A DNA stretch of 61,850 nt, counting the filler, from Dirinaria sp. TL-2023a (taxonomy: Eukaryota): assembly GCA_051941275.1 (NCBI GenBank). It is 5 parts of 5 records of this genome, joined end to end, with 100 filler letters (N's around TTAATTAATTAA, not from the genome) between each part and the next. Parts side by side here need not be neighbours in the genome. Positions count along the whole stretch, not along the records: positions 1 to 12,297 come from JAVEBF010000774.1; 4 more parts are not named here. One strand, written 5' to 3'. Made by a program: the position numbers and the translations under genes. Below are positions 1 through 12,397 of this stretch, in pieces. Position 1 is the first letter of the stretch; the number at the start of each line of letters is the position of its first letter. Below the pieces are notes generated by a model. The model did no database searches, was not told the DNA's origin, and worked only from the letters and a program-made list of their open reading frames with translations.

Positions 1-192
1 GGGGGATGGAGGAGTTATGAGGGGGCGGAATTGCTCATATCTTTGTTTTGGTTCTAATATACAAACAGAGAATTTTCAAGTCCGTTGTCGTTTTCGTCGC
101 TTTTTGAGTGGCTTGATATTTTCCATTCGAACCGCATCAAAATCGAAAAAAAAAAAAAAAAAAAAAAACCAAAAAAGAGAGAAAAAGAGGAT

Positions 193-2476
193 TCACGCAT
201 TGCAGGCATCCAGCGCAGCGGCGACTTTCCAGCACAGCAGCTCCTGCACCTTGGTATCGCTCTCGTCCCGGCTCACCTTCAAGCACGTCGTGACCACCTC
301 CGCGTACAGCTTGCCCACCTGGCCCGGCAATTCCTGCCGGGCGATCTTCAGCAGGTGCTCGTGCGACACGTACGGGTCGTTGGTCAGGTTACGGGTGGCT
401 CGGAAGGAGGACAGGGGCTGCCAGAGGCCGATTTCGAGGAGGACGACGCCGAGGCTGTTGTACCGTCCGATTTTTGGTTTGTTGTTAGTTTATCTCTCTC
501 TCTCTCTCTCTTTTGTGGGCATACGGGGATCTATGCAAGATTTTTTCTTCTCACTTACGAATACAGATCGAATGCTTGAGTATATTCAAGTAACGAGTCT
601 ACCCGCTTCGCCGGGTGGTGATATTCGTCCAGGGTGATGTTCCAGTAAGTCTTGGACCTTGGCGGGCTTATTCCAGGATGCGGATCTTGCTTGGAAGGCT
701 CTTGCTGGCCTGGCCTGGAATGCCCGAATCCACAGAGGTAAGGTTTCGTCATGTATTGCGCATTGCTCGCCGATCTTGACCGGTGCGGGAAGAAAGTGAA
801 AGACGACGACCGGATGCTAAGGTTCAAGGTAAGCTATGTCGCGGTGGTTGTGGTTCTGCAAAAGCTACGCTAGAGCATAGAGATAGGACCCACTTCTTAT
901 GAACCCAGCCAGCTGCATGCAGTACATAAAGGCATTGCGCGACTGTACTGGCCAGCTTGAATCGATCGCCCAGTGGCCAAACGAGCGGCTTAGGTGATTG
1001 ACTGTCTTTGTTCACCTTTTCTAGGAGAGACATGGGTATGTGGTCTCCAATACTTCGATGGCCTTCCAGGTCTTCGACGCTTTCGGGATGTGCGTACACG
1101 AGTCCAAAGCGCTCCCGTCGGTCATCCCTGAAAATCCCGAGGAAAGGCAAAATCCGGAAAGCTGCTGGCCGGTCTTTCACGTTGAAGAAGTCGGAGAGCG
1201 CCATAATGTCATCCTCCGCCTTCTTGTCCTTGATTCGTTTCGTTTTAAAATCAAAATCGTCTGTCTCCGTGATCACCTCATAAGCGTAGGGTTTCCATTC
1301 CTAGAGGTGGATTCAGTTCGAGACCCTTTCATTTGATGATCGACTTACAATGTAGCGGGTCTTCTGGGCAGTCTTATCCTTGGCCAAGGCGATTTGTGTG
1401 CTTCCGGTTTCACTTGGACTCTCCTTGAAGTCGAAATTGTCTACATTTAAGTACTCTCCTGATAGGAGGAATGATTTTTCATTTAGCATTTCATCCTGTT
1501 GAAGCGCGGTGCGCCTCCTTTTCACCAGTTGCTGTGCGCTGGCTTTGAAAGCAGCAATATCCCGGATAAGCTCTGGACCTTGAGTGTGCTGACCCGCTTT
1601 ACGTCGTCTCTCTGCTTCTTCACCATAGATTCTGCTCACGGCTCTAAGCTTGTCGGGATCGCGATTGCTGGAGACATGATCTGGTAACGATCGTTCGAGT
1701 TGCTAGTATGTCATCATTAGTTTTGGCGGTAGCCCGATTGGAGCTAGAGGTTCCTACTATGGCTTGAAGTTCGGAACATATGTTACGCAGCGTTGCAATA
1801 AATTCTTTGAGGCGCTCGATGAAGGTGTCGAATTTGGCGGTTCCTTCCAATGAAAAGCGACATCTTCTGAGGATACTCATGTGTTGCCGACGGCTCTTTA
1901 CCTTGTTCTGAATTTGGTCTACGTGTTTTCGATCTGCCAGAATTTTCTCGGCGGAAAGGTGATGCAAGGCCTAAAATGGTTAGAAATAGAATGCACTTCT
2001 ACCGTCAAAGTCCCTACCGGATCTTTCTTTGTCAGACGTATTCCGTACTTGTTCTCAAGATCGTGGACGTCGGCAAACATATTCGAGATTACCGAGAGGG
2101 TTCTTAACATCTTATAACCCGTCTCATGATCTCTATCGACGAATCTCTGTAGTTTCGAATTCGTTCTTTTTTCGGGTATCACGGGAGGAATCTCCCAAAC
2201 ACGAGCCCATGCTAAATAAGATCAGTACAGTCTACCTGAAAGTGTCCAATGGACGTGCGGTCGTACCATCGAGATCCTAAACAACGAAATGAGCATTTGG
2301 CTAGACTTTGATCGGGTGATACTTACGTATTGCTGCACTTCGATTCTGATTAACTGCTCTTCTGCGTGATGATGCGCTTTCACAATGCTCCCAATAAAGG
2401 CGCATCCTTTGGCGCAGATAGGAAGCAAGCCAACGACGCCAGTAACAATCCCAAAAGCAGCCATACCCTCGGCCAT
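193..2476 (-). CDS. HeLo (HET-S-like N-terminal) domain + C-terminal pseudokinase; 8 exons
   Basis: N-terminus MAEGMAAFGIVTGVVGLLPICAKG...RIEVQQYDLDAWARVW and RCRFSLEGTAKFDTFIERLKEFIATL resemble HET-S HeLo helices. C-terminal kinase-like motifs LHAAGWVHKNIRSSS, PYLCGFGHSR, YHHP, DLYSLGVVLLEIGLW. GT-AG introns at 2277-2326, 2212-2266, 1971-2017, 1703-1757, 1301-1348, 817-893 and 455-558 give one open frame to TGA at 193-195. Confidence 0.8.
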
Positions 2477-3562
2477 TAAGCAGATGCTAAATAACTCGAA
2501 GGACTTTCAAGCAAGCGTCTAAGCGATGAAAGCAGAGCGGTGACGCGGTAGCTCAGTCTAGATTATCGGTTAGAACAAAAGAGCTTAGGACTTGAGCAAG
2601 GACTTTAGACACACGCTTTTTCCCTTGCTTTCGCATCACCTACTGAGTCTGGCAGCGTAGTATATATATATATATATGTATGTATATCTATTGCCCCTGA
2701 AAAGATGTATAAAGGCTTCGTAGTATGATCACCAAGTGCACCCTCGAGGCATGCTACGCCGAGCTCCAGATTCTCGAATCGCGAGGCGGAATGGCTTGAT
2801 TATGTACATGGATATCAAGTTTGTCAGCTACTTCATCATTCACAGCCTCGTCGAGCAGCCATTGCGGCTCAGCCTCAGGCGAACGGGCTAGACTGCTAAT
2901 GGAACGGCATGCATCTCGGAGGTAAGGCTTTCTGCGAGGTAAGGTCAAGAGACCTGTTGTATCCGTCCAATGCGACCATGATGCAGAACGCCAAAACCGA
3001 GTAGCATAAGGTAAGGTATTGCTCAGGCTCGTAGTCTTGAATGCTTTCTGGTGATGCCGTACTACACAGCACAGCGAATGACTGGTCCGCGAAGCGAGGC
3101 CAATTATGTAATGTCAGTAGCTCTCATTTTCCAGCTAGGGCCTAAGTAGGACTAGCGACCCTACTGCATCCTGAGGTACGTTTGATGGTGACTTCAGTTG
3201 GAAGGTACTCGTGCCTTACTTTAGTAAGGGAAGGTCCTTGGTCGACTCCAGGCATTACCTTATTACCTTCCGGGAATACATGTGGTACCTGCCTCATGAA
3301 GCACCGCATTGTGATCCTTCGCCTACACAGCTTCCCCGAGCAGGATACTTTCAAGCGGGCCTCTTAGTGCGCGGTCACTATGTACTTGCACCTCTATCTC
3401 TGTGCTCCATTGCCTCAACCTCTTCTATTCCCGAAGCTGGCTCTCAATTGCCTGCTGTGTAGCGAAAGTTTCTTCTCCGCCTTCTCCCGAGTGTCTGATT
3501 GACCCCAACATTGCTCTTATACAAGCTCCGACCTTCTCTTCTCCTTGCCGCGTCAAAGAACC

Positions 3563-5316
3563 ATGTTCCTCTCTTTCCTTTTCACTCCCTACAGCATCCT
3601 GCTGTTGCCATGCATCTTCTATATCCTACCCTACCTTCGTGCCCATACCATTCTTGATGTTCCAGGACCACTTCCTGCCGCCTTCTCAAATCTCTGGCTC
3701 CTGTACCAATGCCGACGTGGTAGACGCTTTAAGGCAGTCGACAATGCTCACAGGAAATATGGCAAATTGGTCCGCATCCAACCCAACCATGTCTCGGTTG
3801 CAGATCATGAAGCAATTCCGGTCATCTACAGCCACGGTGCCTGGCTGAAAAGGTGCGTTGTGCCTGCTTGACGTGTAGAACAAGCGAGATCGAAGCTGAC
3901 AAACCTCGTGCAGTGATTACTACGATGCCTTCGTCTCCATCCGCCGCGGTCTGTTCAATACACGCGATCGAGCCGAGCACACTAGGAAACGTAAAACAGT
4001 GTCGCATACCTTTAGCGCAAAATCGATATCGCAATTCGAGCAGTACATGGCATACAACCTGCAAGAGCTGGTCAAGCAATGGGATCGCATTTCCATGACT
4101 GCAGTGAAAGCTGGGCAGCAGTATGCGGAAATTGACTCGCTCCATTGGTTTAATTATTTGGCCTTTGATATCATTGGAGATCTGGTGCTTTGCCCCAACT
4201 ACTATACTGTAACGAGGAAGAGTACTTGAATTGACGAGCTGATCCAGGCGTTTGGTAAACCGTTCGGCATGGTCCCAGCGGGTCGCGACATTGCCGAGGT
4301 CAGGAAAACACCTTCATCCCCTTCCTCATATGCTCCCGCAGTTCAAGTACTCAATCGCCGCGGCGAGGTCTCTGCTACACTTGGCTGCTATCCGGCCCTG
4401 AAACCTTATGCAAAACAGCTTCCCGACGCTTTCTTCAGCAACGGACTTCAGGCCGTCGAAAGCCTTGCTGGTATTGCGGTCGCCAGGGTGAACGAGCGAC
4501 TGGAGGCGCAGGCTGAGAAAGCGAAGTCCGGAGAGAATACGGGGAATGGGAGGGTGGACCTGTTGGCACGTTTGATGGAGGGCAAAGATGAGCGAGGGGA
4601 AAAGTTGGGTCGAGAGGAACTGACAGCAGAAGCGCAGACCCAGCTGATCGCGGGGAGTGACACAACCAGTAACACGAGCTGCGCGTTGTTCTACTGGGTG
4701 ACGCACACTCCAGATGTCATGAAGAAACTGCAACGAGAGCTCGACGAGGCGATCCCTGAGGGCGTTGAAGTGCCCGCATTCGAGCAAGTCAAGGACTTAC
4801 CCTAGTATGTTTTTCCTCTTTCAAATTGACTCTCTTCCTCCGCTTCCTAAAGCTTCATTTGTCTTGATAACATCATGTCCTAGCCTCCATAACGTCATCA
4901 ACGAAACCCTCCGCATCCACTCCACCTCCTCACTCGGTCTCCCACGTGTCGTGCCTCCAGGCGGTGTCACGGTCTGCAACCACTACTTTCCTCGCTCGAC
5001 CGTGCTCTCCGTACCCGCCTACACCATCCATCACAGCCCCTCTATCTGGGGGCAGGACGCCGATTCCTTCCGCCCGGATCGCTGGGATCCGGATAATCTC
5101 ACCGAGACCCAGAAAGCGAGCTTCATCCCCTTCAGCTCCGGGCCGAGGGCCTGTGTCGGGCGCAATGTGGCGGAGATGGAATTGGCGCTGATTGTGAGCA
5201 CGATCGCGCGGCGATATCATCTCGAACTCAAGCAAGAGAAGTGGGAGACGAGGGAGGGGTTTTTGAGGAAACCGCTGGCGTGTAGGATGGGGATGAGAAG
5301 GAGGCCGAGGGGGTGA
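3563..5316 (+). CDS. bphA: Cytochrome P450, benzoate 4-monooxygenase (CYP53 family)
   Basis: CYP53-typical segments (VRIQPNHVSVAD, YDAFVSIRRGLFNTRDRAEHTRKRK, NRRGEVSATLG, QLIAGSDTTSNT), ETLR, heme motif FSSGPRACVG. Introns near 3853-3913, 4185-4247 and 4805-4883. Confidence 0.9.
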
Positions 5317-6038
5317 AGAGGGATTTTCAGATCCTGGAAGGTCAATATCGAACCCTCCCCTGCAACTCTTACATGGGGTCCTGCGTGACATGCCTCCATG
5401 CATACCCCCACCCAGCAGGGAAGATCATCAAAAGCAACTAAAGTATTTTTGGCCGACCAATCCACCAACTGATAGGCTGTTTATCTTAGCGGGCTTCAAA
5501 TGATTATTTGCTTGTTTCTGTGGAGTGCACACCCTCAAGGATGATGACAGTTGAAAAGAACTCGTCATTATTTGCACAATTTCGCAGTATGAAGATAATT
5601 GATAGTGGCCGATTTGCTGGTGGAAGTCCTCTAAATTTGTCCTCATCTTCGATTCCCTTGAGAATTCGAAGTTTTTCGTCTATCAGGTACGTCCCGTATC
5701 AATTGAGCCCTAGAAAAGCCCTAAACAAAAGACTTTATGCCCCTGAGTCACCTTATGTCATCCACAGACGCACAAATGGAGGTGTAGACGGGCGATCCTT
5801 CACGCGATGCCAGAACGCCACATCACTAGATCTTCGTGTCGATCCTTTTCTAAGGAGATCTTACCCAGGAAATTCAAGCGTCATGCTGTTCAAGATTTAT
5901 CGGCTGATCCAAATGCAGCCAGTCCCCTGTTCCGTCACGTTATTCTATCTCCTGTCGAAGAAAACTCTCGCCGGCGCCGTGTGATCAGTGTACTCTGTAT
6001 AGATTCTCGACAGATGTTGTGTACAGCAATCTTTGCTC

Positions 6039-8099
6039 ATGGCTTCCAACGACGCGTCCAAAGCATCCGCTGCGATCCAATACGCCAAACACTCTGAAAA
6101 ACTGTCTCTCCTACCGCATGATGCACAGACCGAAGACGCTGACAGCACCAGCGCCCTGCAAGCAAAGTTTATCACCCCTCAAGACCCTGTGATTGAGACG
6201 TCCAACGGGGGCCGGCTACCCGCTATACCATTGGCAGAAGCTGTCAAGCTCAATGAACTCAAGGAGCAGGTGGAAGGTCCTGGCGCTACAGAAGAAACAC
6301 TTGTCCGACTTGATCCCAAAGATGGGGAGGAGGTCGTCAGTATTGACGGTCAGAGGTCGCAACCATCAGAGCGTGCAGAGGCACCTCTACGTACCGCCGT
6401 ACCCTCTTCCAGGACCAACCCACTGTTTCCAGAATTGCCCCTGTACGGGCCTCCTACACTGATGCGCGATATTCAATGCATTGCCTTCCGAATTTCCTCG
6501 TCGATACTCTCTCTCGCATTTCTAGCAGTCATTGTCCTTGGCTCGGCTTTTACAAGTATCCCACTGATGTTCAAACATATCGCCATTCGCTTGACCTTCA
6601 AAGACCCTGATGCCAGGCGTCCGTTCTATGAAGAAGAAAAGAAACGCCAGAGACTGAGGAAGGAGCAGAACGACGAGTGGGGGCGGCGCAAACGGCGTGG
6701 AAGGGCTCCATACAATGTAGAAGCGCATGGCCAAGCTCAACATTATGAGCCAATGGAAGGAGGAAAAGATCCGTTGGTATGCGATGTTGGATACTATGCG
6801 CGGAGGGTAGGTTTGGACACGGAAGAGTTCAAGGTGCAGACGGAAGACGGGTTTATCATCAAGCTGTTGCATCTCTATGATCCAGCAGCTTACACACCCA
6901 CGCCCAATCAGGAACGCGATTGCAAGTCACCTAAAGTGTTTACTAATCATGATGCAGAGAGCGGTTCCTCTTCGTCAACCAAAGGCAGGTTCCGAGGCGG
7001 GCAACGACGCTACCCAGTTCTCCTGATGCCAGGTTTGTTGCAGAGCGCAGGCGCATACTGCTCGAACGATGACGAAAGTCTGGCATTTTTCCTGTGCAAG
7101 AGCGGGTACGATGTTTGGCTGGGCAACAACCGCTGTGGTTTCACTCCTGAGCACCAACTGCTCACGTACGGCGACCCGAGGATGTGGGCGTGGAACATCC
7201 GACAAATGGGCGTGATGGATCTCCCAGCGCACATCTCGCGCGTGCTGCTCGAAACCGGGTTCTCGAAGCTTGGGCTCATCTGCCATAGTCAAGGAACAAC
7301 TCAGACCTTCGTCGCTCTTGCAAAGGAGCAGCGGCCTGATCTCGGCAACAAGGTCAGCGTTTTCTGTGCCCTTGCACCCGCTGTGTACGCAGGCAGCTTG
7401 ATCGGCAAGATGTACTTCAAATTCATGCGAATCATAAGTCCTGGTATGTTCCGGATGATGTTCGGTATCCATGCTTTTATACCATTCATGATGACCATGC
7501 ACTCTTACCTCCCTGGGAAACTCTACGGCGCACTGGGCTACCGTGTCTTCTCATTCCTTTTTGATTGGACCGACGATCGCTGGGACCAGGGCCTTCGGGA
7601 CCGCATGTTTCAATTTTCACCCATCTACGTGAGCAGCGAGTGTATGCGCTGGTGGCTGGGCAGGGAGTGTTTCGCTAAGCAGCGATGCATTCTGGCGACT
7701 AGGATTGAAAACGAGCATGAGGATCTAGAGGACGAGGAGGAGGACAGCCATACGTGCAACGGCATCCATCCGGCGGGAGTTAATGGAGAGCCCGAAACAA
7801 GAGGCAGCAAGGCATGGTACGACGAGCAAGTGCCGCCATTTGCCATCTGGGTTGCTGGATCGGATAAGCTCGTGGATGGAAGGAGGCTGCTGCGACGGTT
7901 CGAACGAGGAAGGGAACCCCATGTGAAGGTTGTACATTCGAAGATCATTGAGGAATACGAGCATCTCGATGTCATCTGGGCGATCGATTCTATAGAGCAG
8001 ATCGGAAAAGAGGCGCGGGAAGTTCTGTGGAGAACGGCGCCGAGGGAGGCGAAGGACGTCTGTCGCATACCAAAAGGGTGTGAGAACATTCAAGCCTGA
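6039..8099 (+). CDS. Alpha/beta-hydrolase lipase / sterol esterase (Tgl1/Yeh-like)
   Basis: Single long ORF with a hydrophobic segment, VQTEDGFII, PVLLMPGLLQS, GYDVWLGNNR, nucleophile elbow CHSQG and C-terminal YEHLDVIW. Confidence 0.85.
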   Translation: MASNDASKASAAIQYAKHSEKLSLLPHDAQTEDADSTSALQAKFITPQDPVIETSNGGRLPAIPLAEAVKLNELKEQVEGPGATEETLVRLDPKDGEEVVSIDGQRSQPSERAEAPLRTAVPSSRTNPLFPELPLYGPPTLMRDIQCIAFRISSSILSLAFLAVIVLGSAFTSIPLMFKHIAIRLTFKDPDARRPFYEEEKKRQRLRKEQNDEWGRRKRRGRAPYNVEAHGQAQHYEPMEGGKDPLVCDVGYYARRVGLDTEEFKVQTEDGFIIKLLHLYDPAAYTPTPNQERDCKSPKVFTNHDAESGSSSSTKGRFRGGQRRYPVLLMPGLLQSAGAYCSNDDESLAFFLCKSGYDVWLGNNRCGFTPEHQLLTYGDPRMWAWNIRQMGVMDLPAHISRVLLETGFSKLGLICHSQGTTQTFVALAKEQRPDLGNKVSVFCALAPAVYAGSLIGKMYFKFMRIISPGMFRMMFGIHAFIPFMMTMHSYLPGKLYGALGYRVFSFLFDWTDDRWDQGLRDRMFQFSPIYVSSECMRWWLGRECFAKQRCILATRIENEHEDLEDEEEDSHTCNGIHPAGVNGEPETRGSKAWYDEQVPPFAIWVAGSDKLVDGRRLLRRFERGREPHVKVVHSKIIEEYEHLDVIWAIDSIEQIGKEAREVLWRTAPREAKDVCRIPKGCENIQA

Positions 8100-8601
8100 G
8101 GTATCGGCCCCGCTTGAGGTTTGGATTTGGGTATTGATGTTGGATAACCAGTACATATGGGAGCATTTTCAATCACCTTAGGATCGACAGCGTGGCGCAA
8201 GTTTAGGTTTGGTTTTTGCATAGCACAATAATGTATGAAAGGAGGCTGCATTATGTACCTACATGTATGTGAACGTTGGACGGACTCAAGAGTAATAATG
8301 GCTGCACATTACATGCTGTTAGGGCAGAAGGAATTGCACGACGCATCAACTACTGGATTCGACATACCAGTTCTCTTGTGACTAGTAAAATATGGTGCTT
8401 ATGGTCGGATTTCTGTAACCCGACATCTATCTAGTTCGGAGTAAAGTACCGAATATACACATATCCCACCCCTTCAAAAACGAGTGCTTCGCCGAACTGT
8501 TTTTCTACCTACAATCTTCAAAGGTGATGAGAATGAGAGCGCACACACAGTAAGTAGTAGTAAGGTAATTAGCAAAAAAAGGGCAAAAGAAATTCAATCG
8601 T

Positions 8602-8700
8602 CTCCCCCGGGTGGGCTCGAACCACCAACCTCCTGATTACTCTGTTTGCTTCCGGAGAATGCTAACAGTCAGACGCGCTAGCCAATTGCGCCACGGAGGA
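8602..8700 (-). tRNA. tRNA-Asn(GTT) with 25-nt intron (8638-8662)
   Basis: Reverse complement TCCTCCG TGGCGCAATTGGCTAGCGCG TCTGA CT GTT A [intron] A TCAGG AGGTT GGTGG TTCGAGC CCACC CGGGGGAG. Acceptor, D, anticodon and T arms pair, and oligo-T Pol III terminator runs follow downstream. Confidence 0.93.
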
Positions 8701-9440
8701 TTACTGACTCAAATTGCACAATTAAGTAATATATTTTAACTACGCTCAACAAATCTGTTTGAAAAAGTTCCGTGTGATAAACGAGCCCATTTCGAGGCGT
8801 TTGCATGACGTTGATGGCTATCTAAAGCTTAACAATGGATTATGAACTCGCCAGGCATAAGTGCAATACAGTACTATCCGTGATCGAAATTTCAATTCCT
8901 GCCTACGAATCTTATCACATCAGACGAATATTGTGTCGAAGGAAGTATTCGTAATGATGGACTACACAATTACGATAGGTCTAGCGAAATCTTCTTTGAG
9001 CTTGTCACACTACTCTGAGAGCATGACAGTCCATCGACTGCTACTTAGGTACTCTCTAAGCCACTCTCCTGAGTGTGTTTCAACTTAGGGGTACCTGGTT
9101 TAATCTCCGACGCTAAAACGATGCCGGCCCAAGCTTCAAGATGGCCGGCCCTGGGATGATTTAGTAATTCTTCAGCTCCCTAAGCCGACGAAACTCTAAG
9201 CCCATGAGAGCTGGCGATTGGTCCCTCTCAGCAAGGGGGAATCCCTGGGCCTCTACAGCTCAGCCTCATCCGGCAACTATGATCAAGCATCATACTCGAG
9301 TAAGTCGAACACGCTATCGGTGCCGCTTCTCCGAGGCGAGCCCATAAAGCCTAAAATGCAATTGAATCCTTCTGCTCGCCTGCTTAAAAGGTTGGTTTCT
9401 CTCCTTCTCTGGCCATGTTTTGACGAAGAATCGCTCCGGG

Positions 9441-12128
9441 ATGAAGTTGGATCGTAGAAAATGGCTTTTGCAGCTCCTTGTGGCTCGATCAGGTATATAC
9501 TTGGTTCTTCGTTCTTGCGCGTTCATGATCTTTGTATGCCTAACAAGAATAGCGAATGTTACTTTTCACGCCCTAGCAAGAGCAGCGAGCGTGTTTTTGA
9601 ATATAATATGTGGCTCGTTTTACTCATACTAGAATGAGGAAAAATCAGTTTCCCGCGTTGTGAACTTTCAATTGCTCTTTTCGATGCAAGGCTGCAGAGA
9701 ATTTGCTAACTGATTCATTAGGTTATGCCATTCCAAGTAGCACAATAACGTATTCGAACATTACAGCAACGCCTACACATAGCTTTCCGTTCTCCGAGAT
9801 TACGGGTTACAGTTATCTATACAGCGGCATCTCTGATGCAAGCTTGCGACATTTCTGCGAGTCTGCCTATTTACAAGCTTCTCTCGACTTGCCGCTGGTA
9901 ACTTCGACATTTTCGATAAGTGAAGATGATTCAGCGATCATCGGGACCGTAACAAATGTGAAGCCTGGAAGCACTATCAAAGCTCAACCTCCTTGCTGTG
10001 GACAATGCTCTATCTCGGGTTACCCGGCGGAACTACGTTACTTTCCTAGTGCCAGCTCGAACTCGTCAGCTGTCGCAAGTACCGCAGTTTCAGATGGATT
10101 CACATAGTGAGTGATGGTGCCAGAATGAGCGAACTTCTCTAAGAGATATCAGTACTTCTCCGTCAGTCTACCTCGTGCTGTCATCTGTGGAAGCAACCGA
10201 TCTGTGCGGCGCTGTTGGAAGCGAAGCAACGCAGAAAGTAACCCTTTCCTTCCCACCGAATTACCTATATACGTACAATGGCATGGTTGGAGCCCTAGGC
10301 GCCACCAACGGAGGTCCATCGGCGCTTTTCAAACCCACAGATCTAGACAATTGCACAACGACTCACACCAGCGTTGACGTTGGTCCACATTTTGCGGACA
10401 ACTGTAGCCCCTTCATTGTTGCCCCGTCCCAATTGCTCGACGTCGATCCAGCATGGAGCACATGCACGGTGAGTTCGATTGCAATGCAATGGAGGAAGCG
10501 GAGGCTTCCCTCGTGATATTCGCTGACACGACCATCAGCGAGTCGCACTTGGTTTTCACGATCCGCCTAGAACCCTCACACCCGTTGCTGCTATAGCCCC
10601 AGCAAGTGACACACCACAGCCTGCCTCAGCAATCCCGGCTGTCACTCCAGATCCTACTCCGCCTTCGACCAAAATACATGGAATCCCGGGATTACTCCCG
10701 GACTTCGACCCGCAAGCCTCTACCAAACCAGACGATCCAGTCGCACCCAAGTCTTCCTTGGCTGCTGCTACATCTGAAGCTGACCCGCCGCCTTCAGCGA
10801 CAATCGATCCTGACTCTTCGGCGTCGAGGGTTAAACCTCAACCAGCCCCGTCGGCTGAAAAGTCCGCCGGAATATCCGATGCTGGTGGTTCACATGTAGA
10901 CCCGCAGCCCGCAATCCACCGTTCTAGCTCGCGATCAACGGTTGGGTCTTCATTTAGCCATGATAGCAAACCTCAGGCTCCTGAAAAAACTGTCGCATCG
11001 GCTCTTCAGCCTCAAGATGCCCCTGATCTTACGGTTTTGGGGCAGACATTCAGAGCCAAAGCCGGATCTATCTACGAGGCACCATCGGCAACTCTCACAC
11101 CTGGGGCTCCAGCTATCACTATTTCCAGCACCCCTGTTTCGCTTGCCTCAGCAGCCGACTATATCGTAATCGGTTCAAGCACGCAATTCATCCCTGCCAG
11201 TTTGACGGCAGCTCCGGCCATTCTACCGCTTGGAAAAACCCCTATCACCGCCAACGCTGCCTCAAAATTCATTATTGGATCTCAAACTCTGACCCGAGGT
11301 GGCACAATCACCGTCTCAGGGACTGCTGTAATCCTACCTCCATCAGGTTCTCACGCAATAATCGGCTCATCAACCGTCGCACTCGGCAGAGCCTCATCAT
11401 CGCCTAAGCAAATCCTAACGTTCGGCGATCAGGCATACACTGCTGATCCCACAGATGCACGGGACTTCATAATCCAAGATCAGACACTAACACCTGGTGG
11501 CGCCATCACCATTTCCGGCACACGAATCTCGCTCCCAACCAGCGGCTCCTACGCGATCATCGGCTCCTCCACCGTCGCACTCGGCACAGTACCTAAATCC
11601 CTCATCTCTTCTCCTGCAAAGATTTTAACTTTAGGCGATCAGAAATATACCGCTGATCCAGCGAACCCACAAGATTTCATAATCCAAGGCCAGACACTAA
11701 CACCCGGCGGCGCCATCACCGTCTCGGGCACACAAATCTCGCTCCCAACCAGCGGCTCCTACGTCGTTATCGGCTCCTCTACACTTTCCCTGGCCACTGC
11801 ATCTCCATCGGCAATAGAAAGACTGACTCTCGGAAGCTCCACCTACACAGCTGATCCCTCAGGGGATTTCGTTCTCGGCAGCCAAACGCTGTCTCCTGGG
11901 GGCGAGGTCACGGTGAGCGGTACCAGAGTCTCTCTCGCGCCGGGGGATACAGAGGTTGTGGTGGGGACGAAAACGGAAGGGCTGGGAGGCCAGATCATGG
12001 CTCCTTTCACGGGGACGATCACGCCGTTCGAAGGCGGCGCGGGGGGTATACGGCGGAATCTGGACTGGCGGAGGGCGGTGGTGGTCATAGGGTTTGTTGG
12101 TATAGCCATAGCGTTTGGGATGATGTAG
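9441..12128 (+). CDS. Ser/Thr-rich surface protein, probably GPI-anchored, with Cys-rich N-terminal domain and internal ~60-70 aa repeats (start and first exon uncertain)
   Basis: Exons from 9722 (GYAIPSS...PPCCGQCSIS), ~10153 (SPSVYLVLSSVEATDLCG...DVDPAWSTC) and ~10540 (HDPPRTLTP, continuing into ORF 10758-12128). Repeats FII.SQTLTPGGAIT.SGT.ISLP.SGS. Small-residue omega-like site (EGGAGG) followed by a hydrophobic C-terminal tail. Confidence 0.7.
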
Positions 12129-12297
12129 ATGTGGATAACTTGTATAATAAGGGTTTTTAGCCAGGTTCCAAGAACGAGAAAAAAGGGGCAAAAAAAGAGA
12201 AAGAAGAAGGGAATCGAGAAATATATCCACAAAAAAAAAGGAAAGCATCCTCTCTATCTCATTTATTCATAAAATCAGCTTTTTCTCACTCCAACTC

Positions 12298-12397
12298 NNN
12301 NNNNNNNNNNNNNNNNNNNNNNNNNNNNNNNNNNNNNNNNNTTAATTAATTAANNNNNNNNNNNNNNNNNNNNNNNNNNNNNNNNNNNNNNNNNNNN
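12298..12397. other. Artificial contig spacer (44 N + TTAATTAATTAA + 44 N)
   Basis: Identical 100-nt spacer with a six-frame stop linker occurs four times in the window. Confidence 0.98.

Follow-up and report, generated by a model that had tools for sequence, protein, structure and literature searches.

Introduction

Fungal HeLo death proteins, as described in the available parts of the literature, are either switched by amyloid templating or built into NLRs. HET-S of Podospora kills through its N-terminal helix, according to the accessible portion of PMC10197012, and that of PMC9262711 describes HET-Vb, in which HeLo is fused to TUDOR. The published kinship between HeLo and MLKL's four-helix bundle (4HB), amyloid control and HET-Vb are covered by PMC9815663, PMC10197012, PMC1325252, PMC9262711 and PMC5485727, and the available parts of these five papers describe no experiment on a HeLo-pseudokinase protein. 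The plant MLKLs (AtMLKL1–3) consist of HeLo, a multi-helix brace and a pseudokinase and are auto-repressed: in the available text of 10.1101/681015, HeLo plus brace is toxic, and in the full-length tetramer the brace and pseudokinase bury it, and the plant proteins are judged convergent. A 2025 review, in the part available, mentions the HeLo-pseudokinase architecture in fungi and poses as an open question how far animal necroptosis is conserved there. Here, we describe an intact HeLo-pseudokinase gene at one end of a 61,850 nucleotide stretch of DNA (the window) from the lichen-forming fungus Dirinaria sp. TL-2023a (assembly GCA_051941275.1), and consider whether its product may be a cell-death effector.

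The window is made up of five separate pieces of about 12.3 kb with runs of N between them (12298–12397 and three later places), so genes beyond position 12297 are not neighbours of the HeLo-pseudokinase gene. Positions 1–12297 are contig JAVEBF010000774.1 (C774), place 1 of the contig being place 1 of the window.

Structure and expression of the gene

The gene lies on the minus strand and its eight exons (Table 1) encode 615 amino acids (aa), the sole stop codon being terminal. All seven introns are GT..AG and range from 47 to 104 nucleotides (nt). A first-pass annotation, made from the DNA sequence alone, had proposed a single 8-exon gene for a Gly-rich hydrophobic N-terminal helix, HeLo-like helices, a linker and a kinase fold with degenerate catalytic motifs, and this arrangement was borne out. 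The motifs it had picked out are all present, namely FGIVTGVVGLL (residues 8–18), RYIEWK (305–310), HKNIRSSS (441–448) and GFG (472–474). HKNIRSSS is split by intron 6, with exon 6 ending in the His-Lys of the catalytic loop, and DLYSLG of alpha-F runs from exon 7 into exon 8. Fragments of seven of eight relatives read HKK at the catalytic-loop point, as does the unspliced window, and this suggests that the position of intron 6 is common to the relatives.

The annotation had also proposed an RNA check for splicing. RNA evidence came from three runs of one sample from one study, labelled lichen metagenome (10–11 % of sampled words shared). The RNA contigs are those of a close relative, about 94 % alike, and not of this strain; in run X1, 95 letters differ in 1,673 bases covering exons 3–8. 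Introns 3–7 are skipped in these contigs at the predicted ends (CT..AC), and at introns 1–2 there are 13 additional letters in two of the three runs, with the 10 nt micro-exon among them. All seven introns are joined, and the gene is spliced in the close relative. Upstream of the gene's own start, the 5′ region has a pair of short frames that open with ATG, one of 7 aa at 2752 and the other of 27 aa at 2636.

There are 132 differences between the gene and the RNA relative, of which 40 are listed, all in exons 6–8, with about ten further differences there unlisted. In the 40 listed, 28 codons are synonymous and nine non-synonymous, for 214 synonymous and 710 non-synonymous sites. The resulting rough ratio of non-synonymous to synonymous change (dN/dS) is 0.13, for exons 6–8 and between species only, and would be about 0.24 if the unlisted differences were all non-synonymous. 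The pseudokinase is under constraint, and the open frame, canonical introns, RNA joints and constraint rule out an artefact or a pseudogene.

The public model from the NCBI Dirinaria sp. assembly (P0001) is identical over residues 149–615 and starts at Met149, inside exon 4. It is without the first 148 residues, hydrophobic helix included, an instance of how public gene models can lose a functional N-terminus. The public gene models of the clade comprising P0001 and its relatives P0002 and P0003 look faulty.

The N-terminal HeLo domain

The annotation had suggested a search of the spliced protein with the Pfam HeLo model (PF14479, cut-off 23.2 bits), and this was run on the single exon pieces. 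Collinear matches were obtained on exons 3 (15.5 bits) and 4 (22.6 bits), neither of which reaches the cut-off by itself, and P0003, the closest full-length relative, exceeds the cut-off at 44.9 bits. When a profile of 110 family sequences was used, the globular domains of HET-s/HET-S were the first PDB matches, with E-values of 1.4e-17 to 1.3e-15 over positions 1–196. PDB searches with a single sequence or shallow profile (P0006 and A4) gave nothing significant; the HET-s kinship is thus visible only with a deep profile. On this profile evidence the N-terminal region is homologous to HeLo, and it is linked to the MLKL 4HB via this homology and the published HeLo-4HB kinship. Pfam matches to Hanta_nucleocap and DHC_N1 fell below cut-off and were treated as helical noise.

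The 19-residue Kyte–Doolittle mean of residues 4–22 is 1.99, which is the maximum of the whole protein and compares with 1.43 for the genome's own HeLo protein with an amyloid motif and a family median of 1.55. A hydropathy of at least 1.6 was found for the N-terminal helix in 17 of 37 relatives.

The protein shares the homologous globular domain, including the N-terminal helix, with Podospora HET-S and other amyloid-controlled HeLo/HELL effectors. However, there is no C-terminal amyloid motif as in HET-S; the C-terminus is a kinase fold, a 345-residue pseudokinase being found there instead. As the annotation had noted, no amyloid motif was seen; there was no Pfam match on seven exon pieces or P0001, and no N/Q/G-rich window. 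Nor was an NLR found next to the gene on its upstream side, the downstream side being off-contig.

The pseudokinase domain

An AlphaFold model spans residues 149–615 (predicted local distance difference test, pLDDT, 87.9; predicted template modelling score, pTM, 0.90). Brace-like helices are predicted at residues 185–193, 196–201, 205–224 and 230–259, and part of this region also aligns with the end of the HET-s globular domain. After about residue 259, the model has the complete kinase fold with both lobes, into which an additional beta-hairpin is inserted between beta-3 and alpha-C, and the linker helices and pseudokinase are predicted to form a compact unit (pTM 0.90). The model matches tyrosine-kinase and TKL-type domains, with MerTK at Z 22.1, root-mean-square deviation (rmsd) 3.2 and 275 aligned residues. 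The C-terminal region also corresponds to Pfam DUF7580 (PF24476, cut-off 27 bits), which P0001 exceeds at 33.6 bits; P0003 exceeds both the DUF7580 and HeLo cut-offs.

Three features are used here to recognize an active kinase, the HRD Asp, the DFG Asp and the glycine-rich loop, and none is present. N443 and G472 fill the HRD and DFG aspartate columns in profile alignments, and strands beta-1 to beta-3, encoded by exon 5, have no GxGxxG loop in the model. Exon 7 includes a variable activation segment and has YHHP at the APE position. Residues were counted in an alignment of 123 relatives, each 280 or more residues long. Asp is found at the HRD column in nine and at the DFG column in three but at both in none, and GxGxxG precedes beta-3 in none of the 81 relatives with a locatable beta-3 motif. 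On these alignments, loss of the catalytic motifs is a trait of a large ascomycete family.

The family pattern at beta-3 is V-L-V-E-W-K, with E308 in 110 and K310 in 61 of the 123 relatives. We take E308 to occupy the position of the beta-3 lysine, from the consensus spacing from beta-2; profile alignments to canonical kinases gave no fixed placement of this register. In that register the family most likely has Glu at the beta-3 lysine position. The alpha-C column paired with E308 is Arg or Lys in 65/123, a possible charge swap with the beta-3 Glu, and is Asp in this gene.

Resemblance to MLKL

The first-pass annotation had called the protein MLKL-like, and for two motifs and the architecture this holds. 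Vertebrate MLKL likewise combines a helical killer-type domain, brace-like helices and a pseudokinase, and mouse MLKL has Asn in place of the HRD Asp and Gly in place of the DFG Asp. The mouse motifs that the annotation had given, HRNISSSS and GFE, were confirmed in the alignment to PDB 4m68/4btf, and mouse MLKL is the best kinase-type PDB match for two family profiles (46.1 and 42.6 bits).

A special tie to MLKL was not supported. Against the 42.6 bits for MLKL, IRAK4 chains in which Asn replaces the catalytic Asp scored 41.8 and the ordinary IRAK4 chains 39.4. As the profile gains 1.9 bits from Asn over Asp and 2.8 bits from Gly over Asp, the 4.7 bits due to two columns exceed the 0.8-bit lead of MLKL, which falls to about 37.9, below IRAK4, when they are discounted. 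Human MLKL, at 30.8–31.7 bits, is no higher than IRAK4 (31.9). In the structure comparison that the annotation had proposed, the fold of residues 149–615 was nearer to many active kinases than to MLKL. Rat MLKL ranked 49 among 48,161 representative chains (Z 17.6, rmsd 4.2, 245 aligned) versus Z 20.5 for Csk, with Csk, FES, BRAF, IRAK1 and RIPK3 all ahead of it, and MLKL was not among the matches listed by Foldseek or its VIA second look. Since the MLKL motifs are family-wide, the argument from them does not single out this gene. The likeness, as far as these comparisons go, is genuine at two motifs but not specific.

There are also differences from MLKL. The HeLo domain of the Dirinaria protein is of the longer, HET-s type (about 200 aa). 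MLKL retains the beta-3 lysine in VTIK (PMC12463104, available part), whereas the fungal family has E-W-K and probably Glu there. MLKL is activated by RIPK3, and a RIPK3-type partner of the fungal protein would be conjectural. The resemblance is most likely one of architecture and parallel catalytic decay, arising from a separate (convergent) fusion and not from orthology. The plant MLKLs, which are likened to the Dirinaria protein by architecture, differ in having a serine-rich tail and solved tetramers (10.1101/681015, available text). By analogy of architecture, the protein may work like MLKL.

Distribution of the family

A search with P0003 yielded 2,853 clusters (50 % identity) at E-values up to 0.001, the weak end of which may include ordinary kinases. 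Named close relatives are from records of Heterodermia, Lecanora, Cladophialophora, Geoglossum, Apiosordaria and Scytalidium. The best-ranked clusters in the Atlas come from ascomycetes, and those at 0.99 are proteins with HeLo and DUF7580. In architecture and motifs the Dirinaria gene is like other fungal HeLo/HELL plus kinase or pseudokinase proteins (PF14479 with PF24476). Its own clade differs from the family in the alpha-C Asp (usually Arg), a proline in the first helix and the beta-hairpin insert past beta-3, and its own copy in having no head-to-head kinase. In public models of this clade, P0002 is missing most of the end of exon 3 and the exon 4 region, and in P0003 some 50 extra residues are inserted where the last intron lies.

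Our search of a largely open-access body of main texts found no experimental study of this family and no papers for 'DUF7580'. The gene is a further example of a kind mentioned in the literature that is apparently uncharacterized.

Linkage to canonical kinases

A domain scan (E-value 0.001) of 75 longer proteins picked from 152 found HeLo in 37, an N-terminal canonical kinase in 31 and neither in the rest. In the 31, the canonical kinase lies ahead of the same cassette and has retained DFG in every case. The middle region of 30 of the fused proteins aligns with the HeLo region of the Dirinaria gene (hhalign 95.5 %, E-value 1.5e-8); hence, the fused relatives are kinase-HeLo-like-pseudokinase fusions. 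In a quick tree of 74 rows, a branch with support 99 sets the kinase-fused proteins apart as one group and the P0002/P0003 clade has support 100.

The Dirinaria genome includes at least eight HeLo loci, five of them with this pseudokinase, and canonical kinase genes adjoin two of these five (C49 and C359, Table 1). Together, fusion and adjacency show, at the level of gene and domain order, linkage of the family to canonical kinases. Given the fusion in 31/75 relatives and the kinase neighbours at 2/5 copies, the likeliest trigger is a partner kinase, a line of evidence absent from the annotation. The linked kinase at the C49 and C359 paralogues would allow a direct trigger test, making them a better entry point than the C774 copy. 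At C206, no kinase was found within the 16 kb examined. A kinase with intact catalytic motifs and, by eye, an ankyrin-like tail is encoded at C2029:344–2134, about 340 bp from the contig start; it is a candidate trans-acting kinase, and any head-to-head partner would be off-contig.

Possible function

We favour, with a probability of roughly 0.45, a self-restrained effector of cell death or of the non-self response. In this reading a partner kinase would act on the dead kinase as a switch and so release the N-terminal helix against the membrane. The linker helices and pseudokinase would hold the HeLo effector auto-inhibited, as HET-S and the animal and plant MLKLs lead us to infer. Phosphorylation of the pseudokinase by the partner kinase would be the trigger, and release of the N-terminal helix, oligomerization and membrane damage would follow. 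The kinase serving the C774 copy would be encoded elsewhere or off-contig.

Several observations weigh against this. The scanned open reading frames (ORFs) of the 12.3 kb contig gave neither an NLR nor a kinase nor an amyloid-motif gene, as the annotation had reported for NLR genes and amyloid motifs, and the head-to-head neighbour is a cytochrome P450 gene, neither kinase nor NLR. No adjacent kinase was seen at three of the five copies, the C774 gene included, in the DNA examined. Among the kinase-fused relatives the HeLo-like bundle lies inside the protein, so that its first helix is not free. The Dirinaria protein's N-terminal helix includes a proline, P19, common to seven of 36 aligned relatives, and, as the AlphaFold model covers residues 149–615, packing of the HeLo core on the pseudokinase would be conjectural. 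The activation segment, where phosphorylation might be expected to act, is poorly conserved, with only S476 common (85/123), and the RNA relative has an in-frame 15 nt deletion in it (window 685–699, approximately residues 482–487). Immunity conferred by plant MLKL is also separable from cell death in the available text of 10.1101/681015.

The strongest alternative, though unlikely, is non-lytic. The HeLo bundle would be a docking or oligomerization module and the pseudokinase would allosterically tune a real kinase, with no attack on the membrane. The 31/75 long relatives with the cassette behind an active-type kinase and the bundle internal are in keeping with this, purifying selection and the orthologue-like conservation in the P0002/P0003 clade would suit a housekeeping role, and plant MLKLs can act without cell death (10.1101/681015, as above). 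However, the N-terminal helix is free here and, like that of HET-S-type effectors, has a strongly hydrophobic character and a Gly pattern, and the characterized HeLo proteins in the available literature are described as death effectors.

A death effector carrying a bait, with the pseudokinase as sensor or decoy for a foreign protein or incompatible allele and no dedicated host kinase, is improbable, although there is no linked kinase on C774 and the activation segment is variable. HeLo also occurs joined to sensing domains of several sorts: in HET-Vb the partner is TUDOR (PMC9262711, accessible portion), and the Dirinaria genome has fusions with ankyrin and with NACHT-type domains. Fusion to and adjacency with canonical kinases nevertheless recur in the family. 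Diversification would be expected of baits and of allorecognition genes, and the pseudokinase instead looks constrained (the rough dN/dS of 0.13 being between species only).

It is very unlikely that the gene is a true orthologue of MLKL, handed down from an ancestor that fungi share with animals. Two profiles have mouse MLKL as their first kinase-type match, the residues of the catalytic loop and of the DFG site being similar, and a chordate MLKL cluster was a weak Atlas lead (0.83, rank 29/30), but IRAK4 scores 41.8 and 39.4 bits against about 37.9 for MLKL after the two columns, human MLKL scores no higher than IRAK4, rat MLKL is 49th by structure, the beta-3 lysine is probably lost, and plant MLKLs are themselves judged convergent (10.1101/681015, available text). 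An active atypical kinase is scarcely credible: UniRef names the relatives 'Protein kinase domain-containing protein' automatically and K310 could serve as the beta-3 lysine in a shifted register, but the catalytic Asp, the Mg-binding Asp and the glycine loop are absent and both aspartates occur in 0/123 relatives.

Returning to the partner-kinase effector, a wider form of it is doubtful as a whole. Ascomycetes would possess a necroptosis-like pathway that is gated by kinases, does without amyloid and is founded on an MLKL-type fusion that arose independently for a third time, and in which sensor kinases linked to TPR, to ankyrin or by fusion would switch charge-swapped, ATP-independent HeLo-pseudokinases, and the C774 gene would be an unlinked executioner for non-self defence in a lichen-forming fungus. 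If true, a kinase-gated HeLo-pseudokinase would be the missing RIPK3-to-MLKL-type step in fungi. The C774 copy offers a clean, intact construct for toxicity and auto-inhibition, and expression is seen in the close relative.

Neighbouring genes and other HeLo loci

The contig edge is 192 bp past the stop codon (about 190 bp in the annotation), and the downstream side, the side of the kinase partner at C359, is beyond it. No NLR adjoins the gene upstream on the contig, which ends 192 bp downstream. A search for an extension found the first 140 bases matching C774 alone, and the best end overlap of five kinase-bearing contigs with C774 was four G's (C2029), which is chance level. Synteny in relatives was sought in two scans of metagenome contigs, with 202 and 219 pattern matches and no confirmed relatives, and among the best 120 of 992 matches in a search with the P450 neighbour, neither the P0002 nor the P0003 organism was represented. 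The P450 gene is head-to-head with the HeLo-pseudokinase gene across a gap of 1,087 bp, and the lipase gene and then that for the Ser/Thr/Pro-rich protein, probably cell-wall or membrane-anchored, lie beyond.

Table 1. Features of contig C774 (window positions) and HeLo-pseudokinase paralogues on other contigs
Feature	Location	Strand	Evidence or remarks
Exon 1, residues 1–50; Gly-rich hydrophobic helix, residues 4–22 (window 2467–2411)	2327..2476	-	RNA contig coverage
Exon 2, 10 nt micro-exon, residues 51–54	2267..2276	-	Between joint ends in RNA runs X1 and X3
Exon 3, residues 54–118, HeLo helices	2018..2211	-	Pfam HeLo E 0.016, model 50–105; RNA joint
Exon 4, residues 119–189, HeLo helices	1758..1970	-	Pfam HeLo E 1.1e-4, model 125–180
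Exon 5, residues 190–307, end of HeLo-related helices, brace-like helices to ~259	1349..1702	-	AlphaFold model
Exon 6, residues 308–443, E308-W-K310, beta-hairpin insert, alpha-C, N-lobe strands, alpha-E	894..1300	-	Sequence and model
Exon 7, residues 443–529, N443 at catalytic-Asp position, GFG 472–474 (window 731–723) at DFG	559..816	-	
Exon 8, residues 529–615 and stop, alpha-F to C-terminal helices	193..454	-	DUF7580 E 0.011
Transcribed 5′ region, at least 270 nt	2477..2796	-	RNA contigs extend to 2748 (X1) and 2796 (X3)
CYP53-like cytochrome P450, benzoate 4-monooxygenase-type	3563..5316	+	Pfam p450; many best matches named benzoate 4-monooxygenase
Alpha/beta-hydrolase lipase gene	6003–8099	+	Pfam Abhydro_lipase
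Ser/Thr/Pro-rich protein, internal repeats, hydrophobic C-terminus	9664–12128	+	Last exon without Pfam match
HeLo-pseudokinase paralogue	C49:10876–16836		Head-to-head with long ORF, TPR repeats ending in canonical kinase domain
HeLo-pseudokinase paralogue	C359:1–3156		Tail-to-tail (~100 bp) with canonical kinase gene running off contig start
HeLo-pseudokinase paralogue	C1903		Faces aconitase-family gene
1100 aa open frame	C206		Weak HeLo, pseudokinase, long tail

Other HeLo architectures in the genome, recognized by eye, are HeLo-ankyrin and HeLo-NACHT (C246 and C13). At C899:6773–9742, a HeLo protein that has a Ses_B amyloid-type motif at its end is encoded head-to-head with a TPR-bearing NLR-like gene, and by its motifs this is a classical amyloid-signalling pair.

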